Below, in pieces: positions 1 through 13,002 of a stretch of 14,091 nt of DNA. Position numbers and translations under genes: made by a program. The stretch comes from Candidatus Eiseniibacteriota bacterium (GTDB lineage: Bacteria > Eisenbacteria > RBG-16-71-46), in NCBI GenBank assembly GCA_031364845.1, contig JANLWX010000079.1:1-14091 (forward strand), in the 5' to 3' direction. Numbering within the stretch: position 1 is the stretch's first letter; each line of letters opens with the position of its first letter. The notes under the pieces were generated by a model. It searched no databases and was not told where the DNA came from. It was given only the letters and a program-made list of their open reading frames with translations.

Positions 1-278
1 GGATCGGTGAAGTTGCTGATGTTGCCGTGCGCGTGGAATTTCGCAAGGTTGTCGAGCACGCCGAAGTAGCGTTTGGACGCGCTGCGCCACGACAGCGTGT
101 ACGTGGTCGTGAACCACATGGGCGATCTCATCTACAGCACCAGCGGGAGCTACCCCGCCTACCGCTATCCCACCACGTACACGCTGTCGTGGCGCAGCGC
201 GTCCAAACGCTACTTCGGCGTGCTCGACAACCTTGCGAAATTCCACGCGCACGGCAACATCAGCAACTTCACCGATCC
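1..278. repeat. Perfect 107-bp inverted repeat (1-107 = reverse complement of 172-278), probable fold-back chimera at the sequence end
   Basis: 1-107 (GGATCGGTGAAG...GTACGTGGT) matches the reverse complement of 172-278 (ACCACGTAC...CTTCACCGATCC) base for base, with a 64-nt spacer. Confidence 0.95.
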
Positions 279-2793
279 CGAGCAGGTCGTCGGCGAGCTG
301 TTCGGCCTCGACGATCTGAAGACCGAGGACGCCGCCGTACAGAACGAACTGATCCTCGCCTCGCAGTGGCTGATCGAGAACACCGACTGCGATGGCTATC
401 GCATCGACACCGTGAAGCACGTCGAGATGTCGTTCTGGAACACTTGGGCGCCCGCCGTCCACGCGCACGCCATCTCGCGCGGCAAGGACCGCTTCTTCCT
501 GTTCGGCGAAGTGTTCGACGGCGACGATGCGAAGAACGGCTCGTACACCGGCACCGTCTCGGGCGGCAACTACAAGCTCGACGCCGTGCTGCACTACCCC
601 ATGTACAACACGACCAACGGCGTGTTCGGCTTCGACAATCCGCCGAGCGAGATCTCGAGCCGCTACGCGCAGCTCGGCTTGTACGACGCGACCACGCGCG
701 AGCAACTCGTCACGTTCCTCGACAACCACGACAACTCGCGGTTCTTGGGGTTCGGCATCGCGAATCAGGACGAGAGCCGCCTGCGCGCGGCACTCGGCTG
801 GCAGCTCACCTCGCGCGGCGTGCCGTGCGTGTACTACGGCACCGAGCAGGAGTTCGACGGGGGAAGTGATCCGTACAATCGCGAAGATATGTGGGATGGG
901 GCGTGGGATTTCGGGCCGTCGGATTTCGATAACTTCGATATGGTGCATCCGCTGTTTCTGCATACGAGGAAGTTGCTCGATGCGCGCAAGCGGCACGAGG
1001 CGCTGCGGCGCGGGGTGACGACGGAGCGGTTTGCAGAGGGCGCGGGGCCGGGGCTGTATGTGTACGACCGGCGCACCGCGACGGACTCCGTGCTGGTGGC
1101 TGTGAATACTTCGAACGCGCCGGTGATTCGGGTGGGGCAGAGTTCGCCTTGGGCATCGGGCTCAGTGCTCGTCGATGCGCTGGATTCCGCGGTGCGCGAC
1201 ACGATCGGTGCGGGCGGAGCTTTCACATTGCGCGTGCCTGCGCGCGGGGTGCGTGTTCTGGAGTCGCTCGCCGCGAATGTGGCGACCGGTGCTGCGGAGT
1301 TGCTGCATGTGACCACGACGTACCCGGGGCACGATCAGAACCTGAACGACCGCAGCTCGCCGATGACGGTGACGTTCGACCGGCCGATCGATCCCGCGAC
1401 GCTGCCCGGGGCGTTTGCGATTGCGCCGGCGACCGGCGGAGCTTGGCAGGTGGCGAATGATGGACGCTCGGCGAAGTTCTTTCCTGCGGCGATGTGGTCG
1501 GCGGGAACGTCGTACGCGTGGAGCTTCGACATGACGCTGCGCAGCGCCGACGGTCGCTCGATGCCTGCTGCGTATGCGTCGAGCTTCAAGTTCCTGGCGC
1601 CATCGATCGGAATCACGGTGGTCGCCGGATTTACCGCCGATCGCATCGCACGGCAGGGGCTGGGTGCGGCCGAGGGCATCGCCTTCGTACCAGCACTGGG
1701 TTCGCTGCTCGTCACCGACACTTCGCGCGACCGCATCTTTACCATCACGCCCGGCGGCGATCTGGGACATTGGCTCGGCGACTCGCGCTGGACCGAGAGC
1801 GAAGGCATCGCGCAGGCGCCCGACGGCCGCATCACCGTGCTCGATCACACCGGCATATTCGCGATCGACGCGCGCCGCATGATCACGCATACCTCGGCCA
1901 GCACCGCCGCATCGCAGACCGGCGCAGGAGCGTGGGGAGGAGCCGCGTTCTCGAACCGCTTCTACATGGGCGACCCCGCGAGCGATCGCATCGTGTATGT
2001 GAACCCTGCCAGCACGAACACCCTGTTCGCGACGGGCATCGCCGGCGCCGAAGGGTTGGCGTTCAGTACCAACCGCGCATGGGGCACGGACCTCTACGTC
2101 GCCGATGCCAACCTGACCTCGCTCGGATCGAACGCGAACGGAACCGGACGCATCGCGCGCGTGACTCCGGCCGGAGTCGTGTCGACGTTCGTGCAGAACG
2201 CGGCGCTGCTGAACGGCGCGTGCGGAATGGCGTTCGACACCTACGGGCGCTTCGGAGGCAACCTGTTCGTCGCCGATATCTTGGGCGAGCGAGTGCTGCA
2301 GGTGACGCCGGCCGGAGCTGTGAGCGTATTCGCGACCGGCTTCAAGAACTTGAGTGGATCGCAGTGCCTGGCGTTCGCGCCGGACGGCGCGCTGTACGTG
2401 TGCGACGCAGGGTCCGGGCAACCATTCTCGAACTCGATGGGGACGAACCAGGCGCAGATCGTACGGATCGCGCCGGCGGTGCTGACGACGGATGTGGTCG
2501 CTGATGCGAATGCCGGCGGCGTTTCGCTCGCGCAGCCGATGCCGAACCCGGCGCGGGATGATGTGGTGTTCAGTTTCACGTTGCCGGTCGCGGGTGCCGC
2601 GAAGCTGTCGGTCTACGATCTCTCGGGGCGGTTGGCGCGGACGCTGTTTGCTGGGCGAGCAGACGCTGGAGTTCGGAGCGTGCGCTGGGACGTGCGCGAT
2701 GATCGCGGACTGCGCGTGCGGGCCGGGATGTATTTTGCGGTGGTGGAGACGGAGTCGGGAAGGGCGGGCCGGCGGGTGGTAGTGTTGCCGTAG
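73..2793 (+). CDS. GH13 alpha-amylase family glycoside hydrolase with Ig-like, beta-propeller and C-terminal FlgD-Ig domains. 5'-truncated: genuine sequence begins near 101 and the TTG at 73 lies in the inverted copy
   Basis: GH13 conserved regions: (D)VVVNH, DGYRIDTVKH (nucleophile Asp), GEVFD (acid/base Glu), FLDNHD, and GVPCVYYGTEQ. Ig-like segment TYPG..PMTVTFDRPID at about 1303-1596. Propeller blades AEGIAF/SEGIAQ/AEGLAF/CGMAFD/CLAFAPDG at about 1612-2475. PNP...LSVYDLSGRLARTL...WD.RDDRG....GMYF at about 2521-2790. Confidence 0.9.
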   Translation: MDALRHDSVYVVVNHMGDLIYSTSGSYPAYRYPTTYTLSWRSASKRYFGVLDNLAKFHAHGNISNFTDPEQVVGELFGLDDLKTEDAAVQNELILASQWLIENTDCDGYRIDTVKHVEMSFWNTWAPAVHAHAISRGKDRFFLFGEVFDGDDAKNGSYTGTVSGGNYKLDAVLHYPMYNTTNGVFGFDNPPSEISSRYAQLGLYDATTREQLVTFLDNHDNSRFLGFGIANQDESRLRAALGWQLTSRGVPCVYYGTEQEFDGGSDPYNREDMWDGAWDFGPSDFDNFDMVHPLFLHTRKLLDARKRHEALRRGVTTERFAEGAGPGLYVYDRRTATDSVLVAVNTSNAPVIRVGQSSPWASGSVLVDALDSAVRDTIGAGGAFTLRVPARGVRVLESLAANVATGAAELLHVTTTYPGHDQNLNDRSSPMTVTFDRPIDPATLPGAFAIAPATGGAWQVANDGRSAKFFPAAMWSAGTSYAWSFDMTLRSADGRSMPAAYASSFKFLAPSIGITVVAGFTADRIARQGLGAAEGIAFVPALGSLLVTDTSRDRIFTITPGGDLGHWLGDSRWTESEGIAQAPDGRITVLDHTGIFAIDARRMITHTSASTAASQTGAGAWGGAAFSNRFYMGDPASDRIVYVNPASTNTLFATGIAGAEGLAFSTNRAWGTDLYVADANLTSLGSNANGTGRIARVTPAGVVSTFVQNAALLNGACGMAFDTYGRFGGNLFVADILGERVLQVTPAGAVSVFATGFKNLSGSQCLAFAPDGALYVCDAGSGQPFSNSMGTNQAQIVRIAPAVLTTDVVADANAGGVSLAQPMPNPARDDVVFSFTLPVAGAAKLSVYDLSGRLARTLFAGRADAGVRSVRWDVRDDRGLRVRAGMYFAVVETESGRAGRRVVVLP

Positions 2794-3454: not shown

Positions 3455-3937
3455 TCAGCGCCGACGAAGATGCGAGGGCGTGCGCTTCGATGGCGACGAA
3501 ATCAAGCCAAGGCGTTTCCAAGTGTCCAGGGAGTCCTTTGCGGCGATCGCCATCTTGAGAGGCTTCGATCCGCTGCAGGCATCGGTCGTGAGCATCGACT
3601 GTTTCTTGGGAAACGGTCGAGCAAACACGAGGTGCGTGGAATCTCCCCGGAGGGCCCAGTCTTCGAATGCGTATCCGCAATCACCGCCTCCAGTCCCAGT
3701 CGCGATGTCGACTACTGTGCCGGGAGAGACACCTTTCCATGACTCGATAATTTTCATCTGCACGAGTGAAAATGTGGGGACTGGAACGCGCACACTGACT
3801 TTCACCTTCATTACCTTTGCCACGAACACATGCGTGCTGGCGCGGAATTCGGCTTGAAGGGACTGCTCAATGCATGAGCATGCCGTTGCTCGGCCAGCGA
3901 TAGCCAGTAGCGACACGATCGTCAAAGTAAGTCTCAT
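3455..3937 (-). CDS. Secreted TIMP/NTR-like domain protein (160 aa)
   Basis: Internal ATG at 3937 of the 3455..4360 ORF gives signal MRLTLTIVSLLAIAGRATA|CSC. Mature protein has Cys1, Cys3, Cys68 (GGGDCGYAF) and Cys102, plus a VFVAKV strand. The longer ORF extension overlaps the AsnB gene and is discarded. Confidence 0.72.
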   Translation of the reverse strand: MRLTLTIVSLLAIAGRATACSCIEQSLQAEFRASTHVFVAKVMKVKVSVRVPVPTFSLVQMKIIESWKGVSPGTVVDIATGTGGGDCGYAFEDWALRGDSTHLVFARPFPKKQSMLTTDACSGSKPLKMAIAAKDSLDTWKRLGLISSPSKRTPSHLRRR

Positions 3938-3999
3938 GCAAAGTGCCCACCAGTCGCCGCCACGCACATCGGCTCGAAGCCGTTGATGCTGCGCAGAAA

Positions 4000-6000
4000 T
4001 CACCATGGCCTGCTCGCCACTCCATCTGCCAAGACTGTAACCCGCGCCGCGGTGCTCGCTTTGTGACCTTGCGTTCCCGCACTCCCGACCCACCGCTCTG
4101 CCCACATCTGCAGACTCAACACCGCCCACAACGTCCGCCCGCGCTCTGCCGCTCCCGACAGATGCTGTGCCAGCATGCGCTCGACGGCTCCGGCATCCAG
4201 AACTCCCGCGTGCTCGATGCGCTCGCGCGATAGCTTGCTCGTGAGGACTCCGCGCAAGGGGCCCCGCGCCCATGCGGAGAACGGGGGCGAGAAGCCCTGC
4301 TTGCGGCGCGTCACGATGGCTTCGGGCAGCAACTCCAAAGCGATCTGCTTCAGCGCCCACTTCCCGGTTCGCCCGCGCAGGCGCGCAGACTCCGGGAGCG
4401 CGAATGCATGCTCGATGAGCGGCGCGGACAGGAATGGCGCGCGTGATTCCACACCGTGCGCCATCGTGCAGCGGTCGACTTTCGCGAGCAGCCCGCCGCC
4501 CAAATAGAGCTCGAAGTCGAGGAGTTGATACGCGAGCGTCTCGGGTTTGCGCGAGCTCGCGCCACAGCGATCACCGATCGCGGACGCGAAGCGACGCAGA
4601 TGCGCACGCGCAGCATCGGGCGCCAAAGCCGCACGGAGATCCGGCGCCAGTAACGCCTCGGCTTCAGCAGGCGCAGCAGTTCCGAACCACGCAAGATGCC
4701 GCTCGAACGGCGGCAGGCCGCGCGTCCCTAGAAACTTCTCGATCAGCAGCGGGATCGTGACGTGATGGTGTCCGGGGCGCACGCGCCGAGCGAGCGCGAC
4801 CAGAGCGCTCGCGAGCGGTCCGGGCATGTGTTCGGCCAATCCGCCGTAGCGATGGCCGAGATACGTGGGATAGCCGCCGAACAGTTCGTCGCCACCTTCA
4901 CCCGTGAGCACGACGGGCACGTGCTTCGCGGCGAGTCGCGCCAGCGCCCAGGTGGGCAGCAGGCTGGGATCGCCGAGCGGCTCGTCCATCGTCTCGGCAT
5001 ACGAGGTCAGCACTTCTTCGCCGCTGCGATGGTCCATGGTGACGAGGAAGTGCTGGGCGCCGAGTTTATCGGCGACGGTGCGCGCGAGCGCGGATTCGTC
5101 GTAGCCCTGATCGGTCCAGCCGAGGCTGAAGGTCGGGAACCGGCGATGGTCGCGGGCGACGAGTGCGGCGGCCACACCGGAGTCGACGCCGCCCGACAGG
5201 AACACGCCGAAGGGAACTTCGTCGGGCACGCGCGAGTGCACGGCGCGCTCGAGGTGCTCGCGGGTGGTCGAGAGAATGGTGGCGTCGTCGGCCGGAGTTT
5301 CGTGATGGCCGTCGGCGGGCAGTTTGTCCCACGGGCGCCAGTAGCGGGTGAGGCGCTGATCGTCCTCGGTGATCTCGAGCACGTGTCCGGGCGGCAGCAT
5401 CTGGAGCGCGGCGAATGCCGAGTCGCCGCCGGCGAAGAATCCGTGCGCGAGGTAGCGCACGATCGCATCGGGCGATGGCGCGCGCGAGACCCACGGGAGT
5501 CCGACGAGCGCCTTGGGCTCCGACGCGAACGCGAAGCTCGACCCGTGGCGCGTGTAGTAGAGCGGCTTCTCGCCGGCGCGGTCGCGCGCGAGCACGAGCC
5601 GGCGTTCGCCGGCATCCCACAGGGCGGCGGCGAACATGCCGTCCATCACTTCGGGGAATCGCGCGCCGCGTTCTTCATAGAGATGCGGGATCACAGTGGT
5701 GTCGGGGCCGGCGCCGATGCGGTGGCCGCGAGCTTCGAGTCCGCGCCGCAGTTCGCGATGGTTGTAGATCTCGCCGTTCACCACGGTGTGAATGGTCGCG
5801 GTTTCGTTCTCGGCGGTGCGCGCGGGCAGGTGCGGGGCCACGATCGCGAGGCGCGCGAGGCCGAGAGTGATGCCGGGTCCGTTCCACAGCGCGTCACCGT
5901 CGGGGCCGCGATGCACGAGGCATCCGAGCATGGCCTCGACGTGGCGTCGGCGCGCGTCGGGTGTGAGTTCAGGTGCCCAGAGTCCTGCGATACCGCACAT
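4000..6000 (-). CDS. asnB: Asparagine synthase (glutamine-hydrolysing) family amidotransferase
   Basis: N-terminal MCGIAG (Ntn Cys), HRGPD, NGEIYNH, RDRAGEKPLYY, FLSGGVDS, VLTGEGGDELFGGY, KVDRCTMAHGVESRAPFL, RRKQGF. AAGGA RBS upstream. Confidence 0.95.
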   Translation of the reverse strand: MCGIAGLWAPELTPDARRRHVEAMLGCLVHRGPDGDALWNGPGITLGLARLAIVAPHLPARTAENETATIHTVVNGEIYNHRELRRGLEARGHRIGAGPDTTVIPHLYEERGARFPEVMDGMFAAALWDAGERRLVLARDRAGEKPLYYTRHGSSFAFASEPKALVGLPWVSRAPSPDAIVRYLAHGFFAGGDSAFAALQMLPPGHVLEITEDDQRLTRYWRPWDKLPADGHHETPADDATILSTTREHLERAVHSRVPDEVPFGVFLSGGVDSGVAAALVARDHRRFPTFSLGWTDQGYDESALARTVADKLGAQHFLVTMDHRSGEEVLTSYAETMDEPLGDPSLLPTWALARLAAKHVPVVLTGEGGDELFGGYPTYLGHRYGGLAEHMPGPLASALVALARRVRPGHHHVTIPLLIEKFLGTRGLPPFERHLAWFGTAAPAEAEALLAPDLRAALAPDAARAHLRRFASAIGDRCGASSRKPETLAYQLLDFELYLGGGLLAKVDRCTMAHGVESRAPFLSAPLIEHAFALPESARLRGRTGKWALKQIALELLPEAIVTRRKQGFSPPFSAWARGPLRGVLTSKLSRERIEHAGVLDAGAVERMLAQHLSGAAERGRTLWAVLSLQMWAERWVGSAGTQGHKASTAARVTVLADGVASRPW

Positions 6001-6012
6001 GGGGTCGTCCTT

Positions 6013-6114
6013 ATGTCATCAACTGTCATGTCACCAACTGTCCGTGAGGACAGTTGGAAGTCTTGTCGCGTGGTCCGCGCGCCACCCGACCGAACTGTCC
6101 GCACGGACAGTCGG
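6013..6114. repeat. Intergenic pair of related palindromes (REP-like) plus a 15-bp tandem repeat
   Basis: 6034-6057 CCAACTGTCC-GTGA-GGACAGTTGG (perfect 10-bp stem). 6090-6114 CCGAACTGTCC-GCAC-GGACAGTCGG. Tandem ATGTCATCAACTGTC (6013-6027) / ATGTCACCAACTGTC (6028-6042). Confidence 0.75.
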
Positions 6115-6150
6115 ATTAGTTTTCCACGCGTTTTCGTGCGAGGCGCCGCG

Positions 6151-7785
6151 CTAACGCGCGGCTCTTACACGCCGGAACGCCACAAACCGCCGGTCCCTGA
6201 AAAACTCCACACTCCCCGGCGGGGCCGGCGACGGATTGCGTCCGCGCCGCACGATCACCTGCGCCTCGGGCGCCAGGCTCGAGTCCGCCCACGCCCGCCA
6301 TCGTCTGTTGCGTTGGAGAGCCTCGCGATAGCGGACCTGATAGATGCTGGTGGTCTCTTCGCCTTTGGCGCTCACGAGATCCGAAATCCGATTGAGCCGG
6401 TAGTCCGTGCCGGGACTATAGCAGCGCTCGTAGCGCACGCGCGCTGCCGTCTCGGCAGCCGCAATCGCGGCTGCCAGGGGTCCCCCAGACTGGGTCTCAG
6501 CGTAACGCACGAGCACTGGCCCGGCGGTCGCAAACAGCAACGGGACGAAGGCGCAGAGTGCAGCGATCGCCCACGCCGGGCGCTGCCTTGCAGCGCCCAC
6601 ACCCGCGACCACCGCCGCGATGCCGAGCGCCACAGCGAACGCCGTCGCGGCCGGCGCCACCGGCATATCAAGCGACGCACTCAGCTTGCCGGTCATGGGC
6701 GCCGCAATCACGCCGCCGATCGCCAGCACCGCAAGCACGATCACGGCGGCCCACGCGCCGCGCCGCGCACGCGAAGGATCCGACCACGCCTCCGCGGCCA
6801 TCCACGCGAGCGGCGGCAAACACGGCACGAGATACGTGACGAGCTTCGAGTTTGACGCGGTGAAGAACACGGCGGCGAACAGCACGAAGCCAAGTCCGAC
6901 CCGGGCCGCGACGCTCATGGGCAGCGCCCATGGCGTTGCGAGCGACCATGGCAGCGCGCCGCCGAGCAGCACGGCGGGAACGAACCACGGCGGCTGATTG
7001 CGCTGGAACGACTTCGTGGTGAGGCGCTCGTACGACTCCTCCAAGAACGCGTAGCGCGGATACTCGGGATGCTGCTGGCTCGCGAGCCAGAACCAGCCGC
7101 CGGCCACTCCGAACACGATCAGCCAGCCGGGGATCCAGGCGAGCCACTTGAGCGGCTTGAACGATCGCATCATCGCGGCGGCGCCGACGCTGCCACCGAG
7201 CGTCCACGCGAGCATCACGGGGCCCTTCATGAACACCCCGGCAGTAACGGCGGCGAACATGGCGACGCGCCGCCATCGTGACGCTCCGTGCTCCAACTCG
7301 GCGGCGAGGCCGAGCCACACGATGGTCACGCACAGTCCGAGCAGCAGGTCGAAGATCACGTAGGCCGAGAGCACGGCGAACAAAGGTGCCGCCGCGAGCA
7401 GCGCGACGGCGAGCAACGCAAAGCGTGTCCCGCGATGTCGGCGCGCCGCAATGGCGAGCAATGCGAGCGTGACGGCGCCGGCGACGGCGGCGGGCACACG
7501 CGCGGCCCAGGGCTCGGTGCCGAACGCGCGGATCGCCATTGCTCCAGCCCAGAACAGGCCCGGAGGCTTGTCGAGATAAGGCATGCCGGCGAGGTGCGGG
7601 ACGATGAGGTTAGTGCCTGCCGCCATCTCGCGCGCGACTTCGGCGTTGCGGCCTTCGTCGGGATCGATCAGGGGATAAGCACGCGCGAGCAGCAGGTTCA
7701 CGATCAGCGCGAGCAACGCGACCACCAGTGGGAATGCGGCGCCTGAGCTTGGCTGGGGGTTGGAATTCCGGATCATGCGGCGCAC
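6151..7785 (-). CDS. ArnT/PMT-family (GT83/GT39-like) integral membrane glycosyltransferase
   Basis: DPDEGRNAEVAREM, PHLAGMPYLDKPPGLFW, EPWAARVP, MKGPV, SKLVTYLVP motifs and many TM helices. Start is GTG 7785 or ATG 7776. Confidence 0.9.
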   Translation of the reverse strand: MRRMIRNSNPQPSSGAAFPLVVALLALIVNLLLARAYPLIDPDEGRNAEVAREMAAGTNLIVPHLAGMPYLDKPPGLFWAGAMAIRAFGTEPWAARVPAAVAGAVTLALLAIAARRHRGTRFALLAVALLAAAPLFAVLSAYVIFDLLLGLCVTIVWLGLAAELEHGASRWRRVAMFAAVTAGVFMKGPVMLAWTLGGSVGAAAMMRSFKPLKWLAWIPGWLIVFGVAGGWFWLASQQHPEYPRYAFLEESYERLTTKSFQRNQPPWFVPAVLLGGALPWSLATPWALPMSVAARVGLGFVLFAAVFFTASNSKLVTYLVPCLPPLAWMAAEAWSDPSRARRGAWAAVIVLAVLAIGGVIAAPMTGKLSASLDMPVAPAATAFAVALGIAAVVAGVGAARQRPAWAIAALCAFVPLLFATAGPVLVRYAETQSGGPLAAAIAAAETAARVRYERCYSPGTDYRLNRISDLVSAKGEETTSIYQVRYREALQRNRRWRAWADSSLAPEAQVIVRRGRNPSPAPPGSVEFFRDRRFVAFRRVRAAR

Positions 7786-7852: not shown

Positions 7853-8986
7853 TCAGGCGGCGAGCAGGCGCTGGACGAACCAGTACGTGCCGGCGGCGAT
7901 GATCACAACCGACATCGCGGTGACGATGCGCCGAGCCACCTGCGGATCGCGCTTCTGCACCCATGCGAGCAGTGGCGCCACCGCGAGCACGATGCACGCC
8001 TGGCCGACTTCAACGCCGACGTTGAACGAGCCGAGTGCCCAGCCGAGCGCGCTCGAGGGCAATCCGAACTCGCGCAGCACGCCGGCGAAGCCGAAACCGT
8101 GGACCAATCCGAAGCCGAATGCGATGCGCGCGCGCGCGTCGCGCTGGCGTTTGAGCGCCCACAGGGTTTCGAAGCCGATGTAGATGATGCTGAGCGCGAT
8201 CGCCGGCTCGACCAGCCGCGGTGGCGGATTGACGATGCCGAGCGTGGCGAGCACGAGCGTGAGCGTGTGGGCGATGGTGAACGACGTGACGATCTTGAGC
8301 AGCCGCGGCAGCGAACCGCCGAGCAGCATGAGGCCGATCACGAACAGGATGTGATCGGGGCCGATGAAGATGTGATGCACGCCCTGGACGAGGAACGTGC
8401 CCGCGACCTTCAACGGACTCTGGCGCGCGCCGACCGTGTAGCGCGCGCTCTTGTGCTTGGCGTCGATCAGGTCCTGATGCATGAGCGTGTCGCCGACGAA
8501 CACGTTCACGTACGTTTCGTGCGGGGGATCGTAAGGAAACAGGGGACCGGAGATCTCGATGGTCGCGGGATCGCGCTCGGCGGCGCGCCAGTCGAAGGCG
8601 ACGGACTTGCGGGAGCGCACGATCTCGAAGCCGCTCCACTCGAGCTTGGGTGCGTGGCCGTCGAGGCGCAGATGGAACCGGTCGTCGACCAAGCGCTGCA
8701 GCACCGCCAGGTGCTGCTGCACGTAGGCACCCGCGAACAGCGAATCGGACGATGCGAAGCCGCCTTCGTGCGCGAGGTCGACGACGTGCGCGGTGACGCG
8801 TCCGCGCACCGCGCCCGAGTCGATGCGGACTTCGACGAAGCTGTAGGGCTCTTCGTGGGCGGTCGCGAGCGTGGGGATCAGCAGCGCGCTCGCGAGCATG
8901 AGTGCGAAGAGCGGGACGCTCGCGGCGCGCCGCCAGGTCGCGAGGTTCACGAACAACCGGCGGCGGTCAGGTGTAACGAATTTCAT
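7853..8986 (-). CDS. HupE/UreJ-family (HupE_UreJ_2) membrane protein with N-terminal extracytoplasmic domain, putative Ni/Co-type metal transport
   Basis: GVHHIFIGPDHILF, FTIAHTLTL, VEPAIALSI, FGLVHGFGFA, FNVGVEVGQ. Signal-like segment ending ATA|HEEP. Start codon uncertain. Confidence 0.9.
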   Translation of the reverse strand: MKFVTPDRRRLFVNLATWRRAASVPLFALMLASALLIPTLATAHEEPYSFVEVRIDSGAVRGRVTAHVVDLAHEGGFASSDSLFAGAYVQQHLAVLQRLVDDRFHLRLDGHAPKLEWSGFEIVRSRKSVAFDWRAAERDPATIEISGPLFPYDPPHETYVNVFVGDTLMHQDLIDAKHKSARYTVGARQSPLKVAGTFLVQGVHHIFIGPDHILFVIGLMLLGGSLPRLLKIVTSFTIAHTLTLVLATLGIVNPPPRLVEPAIALSIIYIGFETLWALKRQRDARARIAFGFGLVHGFGFAGVLREFGLPSSALGWALGSFNVGVEVGQACIVLAVAPLLAWVQKRDPQVARRIVTAMSVVIIAAGTYWFVQRLLAA

Positions 8987-9003
8987 GAGCGCGGCCGCTC
9001 AGC

Positions 9004-9849
9004 TCACGGGCGCTTAGCGGGACGCGCGAAGGTGAGCGAGGCCCAGAAGCTCTCCCAGTCGGAGGCGCGCGGGTCGCGTGAGGGCACCATGTGGACCGCA
9101 CTCACGAGCCATTCGCCGCCACGCGGCAGCACGAGCCGCACATGGCCCGCGGTGTCCGTGCGGCCTTCGACCACCGGACCGACGGAATCGCGCGTCGCGC
9201 CGTCGGCGGGCCGCATGCCGGTGGCGAGCGGCTGGTTCCATGCGCGCACCAGAGCACCCGAGAGCGGCTTACCGTGGTAGAGCAGGTCGAGATCGAGCGG
9301 GCCCGCCGCGGCGGGATCGGTCCGCGGAACGAGTTCCAGCGTGAGACCGGTGGGCGTCGTCGCGCGCTTCGAGTCCTTGCCCGCGATCCACGTCTTCGGA
9401 CAGCGCGCATAGCGCTCGCGTCCGGGTTCCTTCGTGAGCCCCGTCTTCGCGCGTTCCTTGCGCACGTGGTCGAGGCCTTCGAGCGCGAGGTAGCGTTCGA
9501 ACTCGGGCGCGCCGAGTTCAATCTCCACGAAGTTCGACTCATAGGCGATCATTGCTCCGCCGTCGTCGGCAGCGACCCAGCGCCCGAACACGTCGTCACC
9601 GTTCACGCTGGTCGCGCGCAGGTCCTGAACGCGCGCGGCACTCGCGACAAAGCGGACGGCACGGGGTGCGGCGTAGGGTTTGATCTCGCCGCGAAACCCG
9701 GTGCCGACGAAGATGGTCAGCTTCACGGTTTCGCCGGTGGCGGCGCGATAGGTCGAGGGCGCGAGCCAGAATTCGTGCGCGCGCGCAGGCACGGGCGCTG
9801 CCGCGATGACCACGGAGGCAAGCAGGGCGCGGGTGATCGAAGGCTTCAA
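9004..9849 (-). CDS. DUF4198 (NikM-like) periplasmic protein (281 aa)
   Basis: AAAGGA RBS 6 nt before TTG 9849. Signal ending ARA|HEFWLAP. FERYLALEGL, ERYARCPK, GLTLELVP, YHGKPL, RTDTAG, GEWLVSAVHM, WESFWASLTF motifs. Confidence 0.88.
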   Translation of the reverse strand: MKPSITRALLASVVIAAAPVPARAHEFWLAPSTYRAATGETVKLTIFVGTGFRGEIKPYAAPRAVRFVASAARVQDLRATSVNGDDVFGRWVAADDGGAMIAYESNFVEIELGAPEFERYLALEGLDHVRKERAKTGLTKEPGRERYARCPKTWIAGKDSKRATTPTGLTLELVPRTDPAAAGPLDLDLLYHGKPLSGALVRAWNQPLATGMRPADGATRDSVGPVVEGRTDTAGHVRLVLPRGGEWLVSAVHMVPSRDPRASDWESFWASLTFARPAKRP

Positions 9850-9899
9850 GGGGGTTCCTTTCGCAGTTACGGCGAAGAGTGTCTTCACTTCACCACAGA

Positions 9900-10766
9900 T
9901 TACGCGTATGTCCCGGGTTTGGATGTCTCGACGTTGTCCGGTGTTCGGCGCGCGAGGAGTTGCGCGGTCCATGGTCCCGCCGGAGGCGACGGCTCATCGT
10001 AGCGAAGCACTTCCAGCGTCGGAAACGCCGCGCGGAGCTCGCCCGGCTGCAGCAGGAACCGCGCGCGCGAAGGGCGGCCGAATTGCTCCTGGCCTGCGCG
10101 GAACGTCTCGTACACCAGATGTCCGCCGGGGCGCAGTGCCCGCGCGAGCCGCGGCAGCAGCGGGCGATGCAGGTAGCGGACGCACACGATCAGATCCCAC
10201 GCGGCTTCGGGCAGCGGCACTTCGGGTTGCTCGAGGTCGCAGATGAGCGTCGAGATTCGAACTCCCGAGCGCGCGGCGAGCGCAGTCGCGCGCACCAGCG
10301 CCTCGGCGTCGTAGTCCCACGCTTCGACGTCAAACCCCATCGTGGCGAGGTACACCGCATCGCGCCCGGCGCCGGCGGCGAGGTCGCACGCGCGTCCGGA
10401 GTGCGGAATCTGCGGTAGCACTTCGGCGAGGAAGGGATTAGGACGCCACAGCCGTTGCGCGGGGCCTGTGTCCCATCCGCACTCGCGAGTCGACAGCGCC
10501 GCCACGTCGCCGTCGAACCAGCGAACGTCCTTGTAGCCGCGCTCGGTCAGCGCGGCCGCGGCGTCGGCCGCAGCGGCCGGATGTGCGGCGACAATAAGCA
10601 CGGCGGCATCGCGCGGCGGCAGCTCGGAGCGGCGCTCGTCAAAATCGGCGCGCTCGAGGTTGCCGCTACCGGGCAGGTGCCCGCGCGCGAACAGCGTGGG
10701 GGTGCGCACATCGAGCACGATCGCGTCACGGGCGCGGGCGCAGGCGGCATCGGCATCGAGCTTCAA
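9900..10766 (-). CDS. Rhodanese-like domain fused to a TehB-like class I SAM-dependent methyltransferase (288 aa)
   Basis: TTG at 10766 overlaps the upstream TGA (TTGA coupling). Rhodanese motifs VLDVR, GHLPGS, GYKDVRWFDGD. Methyltransferase motifs PNPFL, DLAAGAGRDAVYLA, WDLIVCVRYLHR, LRPGGHLVYETF, FLLQPGEL. Confidence 0.85.
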   Translation of the reverse strand: MKLDADAACARARDAIVLDVRTPTLFARGHLPGSGNLERADFDERRSELPPRDAAVLIVAAHPAAAADAAAALTERGYKDVRWFDGDVAALSTRECGWDTGPAQRLWRPNPFLAEVLPQIPHSGRACDLAAGAGRDAVYLATMGFDVEAWDYDAEALVRATALAARSGVRISTLICDLEQPEVPLPEAAWDLIVCVRYLHRPLLPRLARALRPGGHLVYETFRAGQEQFGRPSRARFLLQPGELRAAFPTLEVLRYDEPSPPAGPWTAQLLARRTPDNVETSKPGTYA

Positions 10767-11848
10767 GCGATGATCGGAAGCTCGCAGCAGTCGCCGGCCG
10801 GGATCGGCTTGCCGTGCGGGCACTGGCGCGGATGGCCGAGGAACGAGCAGATGCTGTTCGTGACCGCGGCGTCGATGATGTGCTCCATGCGGCACGCGGC
10901 GAGTTCCACGTCGGGACCGCGGATGTGCATCGCGGAGGAAAACAGCACTTCGGCGAGCCGGCGGCGGCGCACGAGATCGCGCGCGAGGCTGCGGCCGCGC
11001 GGGGTGAAGTCGAGCGCTTCTGCGCTCTGCACCACGAGGCCGCTTTCGGTCATGCCCCGCAGCGTGCGGCGGTTGTCGACGACGTCCGGAATCTTGACGC
11101 GCGTGGCGTCGGGACGGCGTCCGTCTTCGGCCACGGTCCACATCTGCACCAGCACTTCGTCGTAGCGTCGCTCGAGTTCCTCGCTCGGCACCGTGAGGTC
11201 GGCGAGGCGGCCGTGGTTCAGTTCGACGCGGCGGTCCGCGAGATTTCCGATCTTGGGTGCGTGCGTGACGGTGACGAGCGTGTGGCCTTCGGCATGCAGT
11301 TCCTGAAGCAACGCCAGCACCTTGTCTTCGTTCTCGGCGTCGAGATTCCCGGTCGGCTCATCGGCGAGGATCAATGCAGGCTGGTTGATGAGCGCGCGCG
11401 CGACGCACACGCGCTGCTGCTCGCCGCCCGAGAGCTGCGGCGGAAAGTGCGTGGCGCGTTCCGAGAGTCCGACGCGATCGAGCGCCGCCGAGGCCTCGCC
11501 GGAGTCGGCGACCGAGTGGTAGTGCTGGGCGACCATCACGTTCTCGAGTGCGGTGAGGTAGGGGAACAGATGGAATTGCTGGAAGATGATCCCGACCTTC
11601 TCGCGGCGGTAGCGCACGCGGTCGCTCTCGCTGAGTCCGGTGATCTCCACCCCATCGACGACGATCCGTCCCGCCGAAGGGCGGTCGAGTGCGCCGAGCA
11701 GATTCACGAGCGTGCTCTTGCCGGAGCCCGACGGTCCCATGATGGCGAGCCACTCGCCGCGGCGGATCTCGAGATCGACCTGATCGAGTGCGCGCAGCGT
11801 CGCGAAGTGGCGCGAGACGCCTTCGAGTCGGACGAGTTTGTCGGACAC
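10763..11848 (-). CDS. LolD/MacB-type ABC ATP-binding protein fused to a C-terminal DtxR/MntR-like module (361 aa)
   Basis: GTG 11848 with GGGAG upstream. Walker [10 protein letters not shown]-loop FQQFHL, signature LSGGEQQR, Walker [14 protein letters not shown]-loop VTH. Then, in frame, [22 protein letters not shown]...ACRMEH...[14 protein letters not shown], the DtxR metal-binding/dimerisation signature. Confidence 0.92.
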
Positions 11849-11853
11849 GGCGT

Positions 11854-13002
11854 CTAGTCTCCCTTCAGCGCGAGCGCGGGCTCTACGCCCAGCGCGAGTC
11901 TCACCGGACCGAGGCTCGCGAGTCCCGCGACCAGCAGCGACAGTCCGAGCACCGCGAACGGCACGTCCCAGCGCAGCGCGATCGCCGAGTGAAACACTTC
12001 GCGTCCGATCACCTGCGCCATGCCCAATCCGAGCAGCCAGCCGCCGAGTCCGCCGATGAGTCCGATCGTCACCGACTCGACCGCGAACTGGCGCACGATC
12101 TCGCGCCGCGTGGCGCCGAGCGCTTTCATGAGCGCGATCTCGCGGCGGCGCTCGAGCGCCAGGTCGGTCAGTGTGCCATAGGCACACAGCCCGGCCGCCA
12201 CCAGTGCCGCGATCGTGACCAGCGACATCAGGCGCCGCATGCGGTCGAGCAGCCGGCCTTCGGTCGCGGTCAGCGCCTTGAGCGGGATCACGCGAAGCGC
12301 GCTTCCGTCCTCGACCACGCGCGCGATCACGGCGGCCTCGGCGACGTCGCCGTCCATGCGGGCCTGGATCACGCTGGCTTTGCCTTCGAGTCCGCTGAGA
12401 GCCTGTGCGACTTCGAGCGGAATCCACCACGCTTCGTCGTCGGGTCCGCCGGCTTCGAGCGTGGGACCGGCGACGATGTCGATCGAACGCGCGCCGTCGA
12501 GGCTCGAAAGCCGCACCGCCTGGCCGGACGTCACGTTCAAGCGGCGCGCGAGGCGCACGCCGATCCACGACGGATGCTCGCCGGCGGCGATCGTCCACGA
12601 GGGATGCAGCCGCCGTGCGGCCGCGAGGTCGGCGCCGATCACCTGGAACGCGACGCGCCCGGTGCGCGCGGCGACATAGAGGAGCGGCACGCCCTGAACG
12701 CCGGCGGCGCGCAGACGCTCCTGCGCGGAGCGCGCGTCGAGGAATACTCCGGAGGCGGCGCCGGTGGTGCCGATCGGTCCTTCGATGCCGCCGGATGCGC
12801 CGGGCACCACGAGCAGGTTGGGCCCGAGCGAACGCAGCTCGCGCGTGAGCTTGCGCGAAACATCGCCGGACACGTGCAGCAACGCCGAGGCGACCGAGGC
12901 GCCGATCATCACCGCGATCACCGCGAGCCCGGCGGTGCCGCGCTTCTTCCACAGCGCGCCGCGCAGCAGGCGCAGGTCCATGCGCAACGACGCATCAGCC
13001 AC
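11854..13002 (-). CDS. ABC transporter permease, FtsX/MacB family
   Basis: N-terminal TM followed by LTRELRSLGPNLLVVP, a periplasmic domain, then ERRREIALMKALGA and three C-terminal TMs ending VEPALALKGD. GTG start overlaps the upstream gene end. Confidence 0.92.
   Translation of the reverse strand: MADASLRMDLRLLRGALWKKRGTAGLAVIAVMIGASVASALLHVSGDVSRKLTRELRSLGPNLLVVPGASGGIEGPIGTTGAASGVFLDARSAQERLRAAGVQGVPLLYVAARTGRVAFQVIGADLAAARRLHPSWTIAAGEHPSWIGVRLARRLNVTSGQAVRLSSLDGARSIDIVAGPTLEAGGPDDEAWWIPLEVAQALSGLEGKASVIQARMDGDVAEAAVIARVVEDGSALRVIPLKALTATEGRLLDRMRRLMSLVTIAALVAAGLCAYGTLTDLALERRREIALMKALGATRREIVRQFAVESVTIGLIGGLGGWLLGLGMAQVIGREVFHSAIALRWDVPFAVLGLSLLVAGLASLGPVRLALGVEPALALKGD

Follow-up and report, generated by a model that had tools for sequence, protein, structure and literature searches.

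A DtxR-like domain fused to an ABC transporter ATPase as a candidate metal sensor in a putative iron-uptake operon

Why should the ATPase of an ABC transporter end in the core of a metal-dependent transcription factor? The question is raised by a gene in the window, the 14,091-nucleotide stretch of Candidatus Eiseniibacteriota DNA (GCA_031364845.1, contig JANLWX010000079.1) that we analysed. An earlier note, made from the sequence alone, had described a LolD-type ATPase running without a stop into a tail of about 140 residues that resembled a whole DtxR-family protein, and had proposed either a repressor domain co-opted as a cytoplasmic metal sensor of a MacB-type transporter or a membrane-tethered regulator. 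The features that bear on these proposals are as follows.

10763..11848, minus strand: fusion gene, 361 residues, predicted FetD-type ABC ATPase plus DtxR-like domain (open reading frame, Pfam and model)
11201..11848, minus strand: ABC ATPase domain, residues 1–216 (Pfam, motifs and comparison with an E. coli plasmid ATPase)
10766..11185, minus strand: DtxR-like domain, residues 222–361 (model matches IdeR/DtxR, TM about 0.8)
11156-11158, minus strand: E231, at the M10 position (profile alignment to IdeR)
11045..11125, minus strand: eroded helix-turn-helix (HTH), residues 242–268 (3-residue deletion relative to IdeR; DNA contacts replaced)
10880..10894, minus strand: C319, E322 and H323, at the positions of the DtxR primary-site ligands C102, E105 and H106 (profile alignment to IdeR)
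10784..10849, minus strand: Cys4/His2 tail, C334, H339, C343, H345, C354 and C355 (invariant in 76/76 fused proteins)
11854..13002, minus strand: MacB/FtsX-type permease 2, FetC-like (Pfam; 34% identity with its E. coli plasmid counterpart)
12995..14091, minus strand: MacB/FtsX-type permease 1, FetB-like (truncated at the 5' end, where the contig stops)
9900..10766, minus strand: rhodanese plus SAM methyltransferase gene, TehB-like (Pfam and neighbourhoods)

One reading frame, two domains

The 361-residue frame contained no internal stop in the translated window. Pfam assigned ABC_tran to residues 21–166 (124 bits) and Fe_dep_repr_C (PF02742, for metal binding and dimerisation) to residues 282–350 (76 bits; the cut-off is 27 bits). 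GC3 hardly differed between the ATPase part (0.85) and the tail (0.88). The junction was bridged without gaps by one contig of run X1 (10400–11368, two differing letters), which may derive from the source sample and is hence not independent. Independent homologues carried both Pfam domains: a query with the tail (residues 200–361) matched 340 clusters, with both domains in 120/120 among the matches listed, and an acidobacterial tail query matched 3661 clusters, with both domains in 118/120 among the matches listed. Together, the stop-free frame, the X1 contig and the homologues with the same fusion ruled out a frameshift or assembly artefact.

To gauge how widely the fusion occurs, we used two samples. 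Both domains shared a single stop-free frame in 25 of 41 genomes, that is, the window's own and 40 relatives (an unpublished genome, G026, is included in these 25, in the FeoB tally and among the three Fur-box loci described below). A scan covering 18 of the 64 parts of the named-genome set examined 600 stretches and confirmed 336, and the best 80 of these, hereafter the named loci, comprised 75 fusions and 5 stand-alone proteins. Acidobacteriota predominated among them, with Candidatus Eisenbacteria next; the closest named relatives were Eisenbacteria. The description of an ATPase continuing without a stop into a tail was thus borne out, all the motifs that the earlier note had quoted were present, and the architecture itself, ABC_tran plus Fe_dep_repr_C, proved to be recurrent. 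A quick, unfinished and weak tree gave six changes for 32 fused rows, of which 26 clustered (support 94) and the rest were long branches; a single origin of the fusion was not established by this tree.

The ATPase motifs were intact (Walker A at 38–45, signature at 139–144, Walker B/D-loop at 160–169 and H-loop H196). Walker A, Q-loop, signature, Walker B with the catalytic Glu, D-loop and H-loop were all invariant in the covered rows of the fused proteins. The best Foldseek matches of the full-length model were MacB-type NBDs; fold searches with the full-length protein were filled by ATPases and gave no match specific to the Cys tail. The domain scored below the equivalog cut-offs of LolD (203.5 versus 307.75 bits) and FtsE (194.4 versus 264.85 bits) and likewise did not pass that of MacB. 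With the ATPase encoded in a FetMP cluster on an E. coli plasmid (NZ_CP021880.1), a cluster that was among its best plasmid matches, it shared 57% identity, and other proteins of the operon also resembled their counterparts there (FetB-like permease, 32%, compared through the G001 orthologue; FtrD, 34%; FTR1, 29%). A generic LolD/MacB exporter was rejected on the neighbouring genes, FTR1–FtrD and the permeases. The permeases are of MacB type, as the note had supposed, but the operon and the pairwise matches point to a FetBCD-type unit of a Fet/Ftr cluster and not to a generic LolD/MacB transporter. We therefore assign the fusion ATPase, on its sequence and gene setting, as the predicted FetD-type subunit encoded by a compact Fet/Ftr operon.

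The whole-protein model (pLDDT 89) and the model of the DtxR-like domain (pLDDT 90, pTM 0.85) agreed with each other, and the domain model superposed on 2isy with a VIA Z of 18.5 (rmsd 4.0, 139 aligned). Helix 1 (222–241) starts five residues after the last ATPase strand in the models. In the profile alignment, E9/M10 of IdeR become D230/E231, H79 becomes R296, E83 is retained as E300 and H98 becomes E315. The positions of C102, E105 and H106, which we take to be the DtxR primary-site ligands, were invariant in 76/76 fused proteins. The ancillary site, presumably formed by H79, E83 and H98 with ligands from the SH3 domain, reads R, E and E in the window with no SH3 domain; relatives keep H79 in 66/76 and H98 in 38/76. 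The Cys4/His2 tail is a candidate extra metal or Fe–S site, and we know of no recognised cluster motif with its spacing, C-x8-C-x10-CC. Two fusions, G027 and G029, have lost C102/E105 and kept the four cysteines, an indication that it is these cysteines, and not the DtxR site, that are essential.

The part of the domain that would contact DNA has fared differently. Mean conservation across the 76 fused proteins was 0.79 in the metal/dimer region and 0.76 in the ATPase, but fell to 0.51 for the HTH and 0.46 for the wing, and these last two tolerate insertions of 9 and of 30–33 residues, respectively. Some acidobacterial subgroups (L069, L074, L087, L116 and L090) have either a His/Cys-rich wing insertion of 30–33 residues or a His/Cys-rich linker between ATPase and DtxR-like domain, possibly further metal sites. 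The first HTH helix was modelled as a loop, the remainder being DtxR-like, and PF01325, the DNA-binding Pfam domain, was undetected in the fusion, whereas the canonical MntR of the same genome, encoded beside an NRAMP gene, does match. The resemblance to a whole DtxR protein therefore held for Fe_dep_repr_C and the fold, but not for PF01325, the first HTH helix or the SH3-like third domain, which is absent. We took twelve DNA-contact positions of IdeR from the accessible part of PMC8464063; ten of these were kept in at most 6/76 fused rows. The fusion lacked the IdeR-type winged-HTH set of S37, P39, T40 and Q43 with backbone arginines, and the median net charge of the winged helix was −3 in fusions versus +2 in three canonical proteins. 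Counting against a DNA-blind reading, the two remaining contacts, R47 and R29, were kept in 56/76 and 34/76 rows, and the HTH segment had a conservation of 0.84 in the closest 111 homologues. Since the metal site and the four cysteines are kept and nearly all DNA contacts lost, direct throttling of the transporter by the metal level of the cell is likely, rather than gene switching.

The operon, its control and its alternation with FeoB

In relatives, the operon consists of an FTR1–FtrD fusion gene, two MacB-type permease genes and the ATPase–DtxR fusion, in this order, the FTR1 iron permease being fused to an FtrD-like (DUF2318) domain. In the window's own genome, the end of contig C225 carries an ArsR gene, the FTR1–FtrD gene and the start of permease 1; we infer a C225/C144 join, with about 11 codons missing between the contigs and no overlap. 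FTR1 plus FtrD and both permeases were complete at 58 of the 75 fused loci (a few with frameshifted pieces), 16 were cut by contig ends and one was an orphan. This orphan, L086:6344-7453, has no permeases or FTR1 nearby and no Fur match in its genome. No FetP/P19 or thioredoxin gene recurred within about 7 kb at the 80 named loci. The FTR1 domain, the sole FTR1 of the window's genome, keeps both REGxE motifs, and the FtrD domain has two CxxC motifs. The four-gene operon likely imports iron. In the accessible part of PMC10783030, fetA-D deletions impair low-iron growth of C. jejuni, the authors call the substrate of FetBCD unclear even in Campylobacter, and a model has FetBCD relaying reducing power.

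We found that the fusion alternates with FeoB (called as PF02421, E<1e-45). Of the 25 genomes with the fusion, 3 had FeoB, as against 13 of the 16 that lack it, a descriptive pattern among kin and partly incomplete MAGs. Within the window's family, the counts were 1/15 with the fusion versus 8/10 without, and 1/5 acidobacterial genomes had FeoB. A decayed remnant of the DtxR-like tail (L148:4877-5161, genome G010) lies before a rhodanese-methyltransferase gene in a genome in which the operon is otherwise gone and FeoB is present.

Transcriptional control of the operon appears to lie outside the fused domain, with a Fur-box-like palindrome in Acidobacteria and an ArsR gene in the window's family. 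Among the 56 named loci with a usable upstream region, 51 had a 19-bp palindrome (consensus GTTGCAAATNATTTGCAAC) just behind a sigma-70-like promoter; its score beat all 20 shuffles, with the promoter matrix trained on 43 of these 51 loci and with identical training and scoring regions. The palindrome fits TG-N11-CA, the pattern common to Fur-type boxes in the accessible part of PMC1698941, and not the IdeR consensus. A Fur-family gene was found in 4/5 acidobacterial genomes tested, and the acidobacterial palindrome is probably under Fur. A similar palindrome heads the fur-feoB operon of G039, a genome with no fusion match; the fur-feoB operons L031 and L075 had no matching upstream site, and a genome-wide iron regulon was not recovered from palindrome matches in three Acidobacteria.

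Of 20 loci on the window's side, three had the palindrome, 12 had an ArsR/SmtB gene instead and five had neither. All three palindrome loci were in genomes with a Fur match near 1e-29. A TGAA-N14-TTCA site was present in 10 of the 12 ArsR/SmtB-led loci, and just two such genomes gave a weak Fur-family match; Fur was not found in the window's own genome nor in 21 of 24 members of its family. Because the fused domain is present at all 20 loci while the regulator changes, it is unlikely to be the repressor of the operon, and this persistence supports a sensor over a repressor role. The ArsR/SmtB-type gene in the window's genome (L118:1478-1975, G000 contig C225) encodes a C-x4-C motif near the C terminus, has the conserved TGAA-N14-TTCA site and leads the operon. 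Regulators of the ArsR/SmtB class are usually de-repressed by metal excess. The ArsR/SmtB-led operon, the replacement of H79 by R and of H98 by E, and the failure to find Fur suggest that the metal sensed in the window's family may not be iron.

Downstream, the TTG start of the rhodanese-methyltransferase gene overlaps the stop of the ATPase–DtxR gene. This gene is conserved downstream in the window's family only, not in Acidobacteria, and an RND efflux pair is often next. In the window, genes of the DUF4198 and HupE/UreJ families follow directly (7853-9972, minus strand), both families being linked to Ni/Co uptake. Elsewhere in the window, a perfect 107-nt inverted repeat at the contig start (1-107 and 172-278) is probably an assembly fold-back and makes the 5' end of the open reading frame at 73-2793 (plus strand) unreliable. 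The product of this frame, with an alpha-amylase catalytic domain, Big_5, NHL-like repeats and a C-terminal FlgD-Ig domain, is likely a secreted glycoside hydrolase. An ArnT/PMT-type glycosyltransferase and an asparagine-synthase-like amidotransferase are encoded at 4000-7785 (minus strand), and GC drops to 0.56 at 3501-4000.

Stand-alone relatives behind feoB

The Cys4 tail is not confined to fusions. We selected by length, from 50%-identity representatives, 81 stand-alone proteins of 205–260 residues; PF02742 was detected in 81/81, FeoA in 75 and PF01325 in none (at least one member, P0188, is probably a fusion fragment). With the five stand-alone loci added, the triad was present in 86/86 rows and the four cysteines in 83–86/86, while the recognition-helix motif was found in 0 and the HTH segment ranged in length from 39 to 86 residues. 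A Cys4 DtxR-like protein was found in 46 of 81 sampled Nitrospirota genomes. The best 30 Nitrospirota loci all encoded a FeoA-fold domain, although DtxR proteins ordinarily have such a domain as their third; feoB lay directly upstream in 22, and an FTR1 gene came next in four. In four genomes of the Nitrospirota group (L198, L199, L200 and L201), the order is feoB, Cys4 DtxR-like/FeoA gene and FTR1, with fur in front in three. Operons of this kind, fur-feoB-sensor-FTR1, could plausibly have given rise to the fusion. On a Pelobacter plasmid, too, feoB is followed by a Cys4 DtxR-like gene, and WP_011733790 of Pelobacter propionicus, annotated as a 'metal-dependent transcriptional regulator', is a stand-alone Cys4 example. 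The Geobacter 'IdeR' is presumably a stand-alone DtxR-like protein behind feoB as well.

PMC8980893 excluded DtxR-linked FeoA proteins from its dataset, and PMC2700814 records fur-feoB-1 but not the DtxR-like gene. Consistent with the feoB adjacency and the dead HTH, we infer that the stand-alone Cys4 protein acts on FeoB. More tentatively, and at less than even odds, fused and stand-alone proteins may form a widespread, unrecognised DtxR subfamily that no longer binds DNA and serves as a plug-in iron or Fe–S sensor for two unrelated Fe(II) importers. In Acidobacteria and Eisenbacteria it would be part of the FetD ATPase chain itself, whereas in Nitrospirota and other lineages its FeoA-fold domain would be what acts on the FeoB GTPase. 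If so, many 'DtxR-type regulators' annotated beside feoB do not regulate genes.

Metal gating, its rivals and known systems

We consider it most probable, at about 0.55, that the tail senses metal in the cytoplasm; as a dimer, it would sit under the ATPase dimer and block its cycle when loaded. The two DtxR cores would dimerise beneath the ATPases as DtxR does. Since helix 1, with its ligand at the M10 position, starts so close to the last ATPase strand, metal binding could pull directly on the nucleotide-binding domains. The sensed metal would most likely be Fe(II), and plentiful metal would shut the ATPase cycle down. The Cys4 tail may bind structural Zn or a second Fe/Fe–S centre in place of the lost SH3-dependent site. 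As what FetBCD itself moves is unclear, gating would be exerted on a component that assists the FTR1 permease. This would amount to trans-inhibition of the kind known for MetN, ModC and ZnuC: the accessible parts of the sources show such inhibition by the ATPase tail for MetN and ModC (PMC10710835), report tail feedback for ZnuC (PMC12236471, a preprint) and only propose iron binding and a similar role for a histidine cluster in FbpC (PMC2896483). The sensor proposal of the earlier note thus fits the invariant ATPase motifs, the one invariant DtxR metal site and the iron permease in the operon, and its tethered-regulator alternative is disfavoured, given that DNA-contact residues are lost and other regulators lead the operon. 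Counting against the sensor reading, no FetP/P19 or thioredoxin recurs beside the operon, which therefore differs from the Fet systems that have been tested.

An unlikely alternative is that the Cys4 tail holds an Fe–S cluster or a redox-active metal and that the domain works in the manner of FeoC. Instead of free Fe(II), it would sense oxygen, redox state or the supply of Fe–S clusters, or else it would pass electrons to the redox-dependent FtrD/FTR1 step. The cysteines are indeed the strictest invariant in fused and stand-alone proteins, persisting where C102/E105 are lost; the CxxC motifs of FtrD and the relay of reducing power in the C. jejuni model would suit such a role, and FeoC, which has a winged-helix fold, binds both [4Fe-4S] and FeoB (accessible part of 10.1101/2022.02.26.482101). 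However, adjacent cysteines with His also occur in the ZnuC zinc sensor (accessible part of PMC12236471), and, two rows apart, the DtxR triad is just as invariant. Still less probable is a role without regulation, in which the domain, its metal being structural, would clamp the dimer constitutively or accept metal at the cytoplasmic exit. Fe_dep_repr_C does serve dimerisation, and most Fet ATPases work without such a tail, the E. coli plasmid protein having 231 residues; but a pure clamp would need neither the helix-1 ligand, the C/E/H triad nor the Cys4 motif, all conserved across phyla, and this module is also found next to FeoB, an unrelated protein.

We regard as very improbable a turn of the operon, in the window's family, to another metal or to export and detoxification, with a sensor that activates rather than inhibits. 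This would accord with the ArsR/SmtB gene and its own site at the head of the operon, the replaced H79 and H98, the TehB-like rhodanese-methyltransferase, DUF4198, HupE/UreJ and RND pump genes nearby, and the fact that MacB-type permeases are usually exporters or mechanotransducers. By contrast, FTR1 keeps both REGxE motifs and has no second copy in the genome, and the operon alternates with FeoB inside this very family. We give hardly any credence to a membrane-tethered repressor acting on the promoter palindrome. Such a repressor could explain the strength of the palindrome across the named loci, its being the best such site in the three acidobacterial genomes, where other matches form no clear iron regulon, and the winged-helix fold that persists in the model. 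Yet the DNA contacts are lost and the winged helix is negatively charged, the palindrome is of Fur type, and it tracks Fur rather than the fusion, as at fur-feoB of the fusion-less G039.

We found no description of a DtxR-derived tail on an ABC ATPase, nor of a substrate-sensing regulatory domain on MacB-type transporters, in the accessible literature (main texts; most subscription papers lay outside it). A metal-gated FetD would, if confirmed, place an iron sensor derived from a transcription factor on a transporter of the MacB type. As a point of control open to mutation, the fused domain would offer a handle on the role of FetBCD in Fet iron uptake. The 3661 clusters matched by the acidobacterial tail suggest relevance to the abundant soil Acidobacteria.

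The operon shares its gene order (FTR1, DUF2318/FtrD, two MacB-type permeases, ATPase) with FetMP-FetABCDEF of C. jejuni and FetMP of the E. coli plasmid, but here the FTR1 core and FtrD form one protein, FetP/P19 and thioredoxin do not recur and the ATPase has a 140-residue DtxR-like tail. With DtxR/IdeR (2isy, 7b1v and 1bi0) and MntR, the fusion has in common the fold over about 130 residues and the C102/E105/H106 and E83 positions; it differs in its eroded HTH, the absent SH3-like domain, E or H in place of M10, variable H79 and H98, the Cys4 tail and the ATPase. The stand-alone feoB-linked proteins have the same Cys4 tail, invariant triad and eroded HTH, but keep an SH3/FeoA-fold third domain and have no fused ATPase. 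As far as the accessible parts of the sources go, MetNI and ModBC (PMC10710835) and ZnuBC (PMC12236471) also have a C-terminal ATPase extension, which dimerises and binds substrate, and the ZnuC tail has Cys/His ligands including adjacent cysteines, like the fusion; these are, however, type I/II importers with unrelated tail folds, whereas the fusion has a transcription-factor core on a MacB-type transporter. FeoC is likewise a winged-helix protein with cysteines that acts on the nucleotide-binding domain of an Fe(II) transporter and not on DNA, but it is a small separate protein of another family with no DtxR dimerisation core (accessible part of 10.1101/2022.02.26.482101). Both the iron-uptake cluster, here in compact form, and the principle of feedback through the tail of an ATPase are thus known; what the present analysis adds is the feoB-linked Cys4 sister family, the switch from Fur to ArsR and the alternation of the operon with FeoB.
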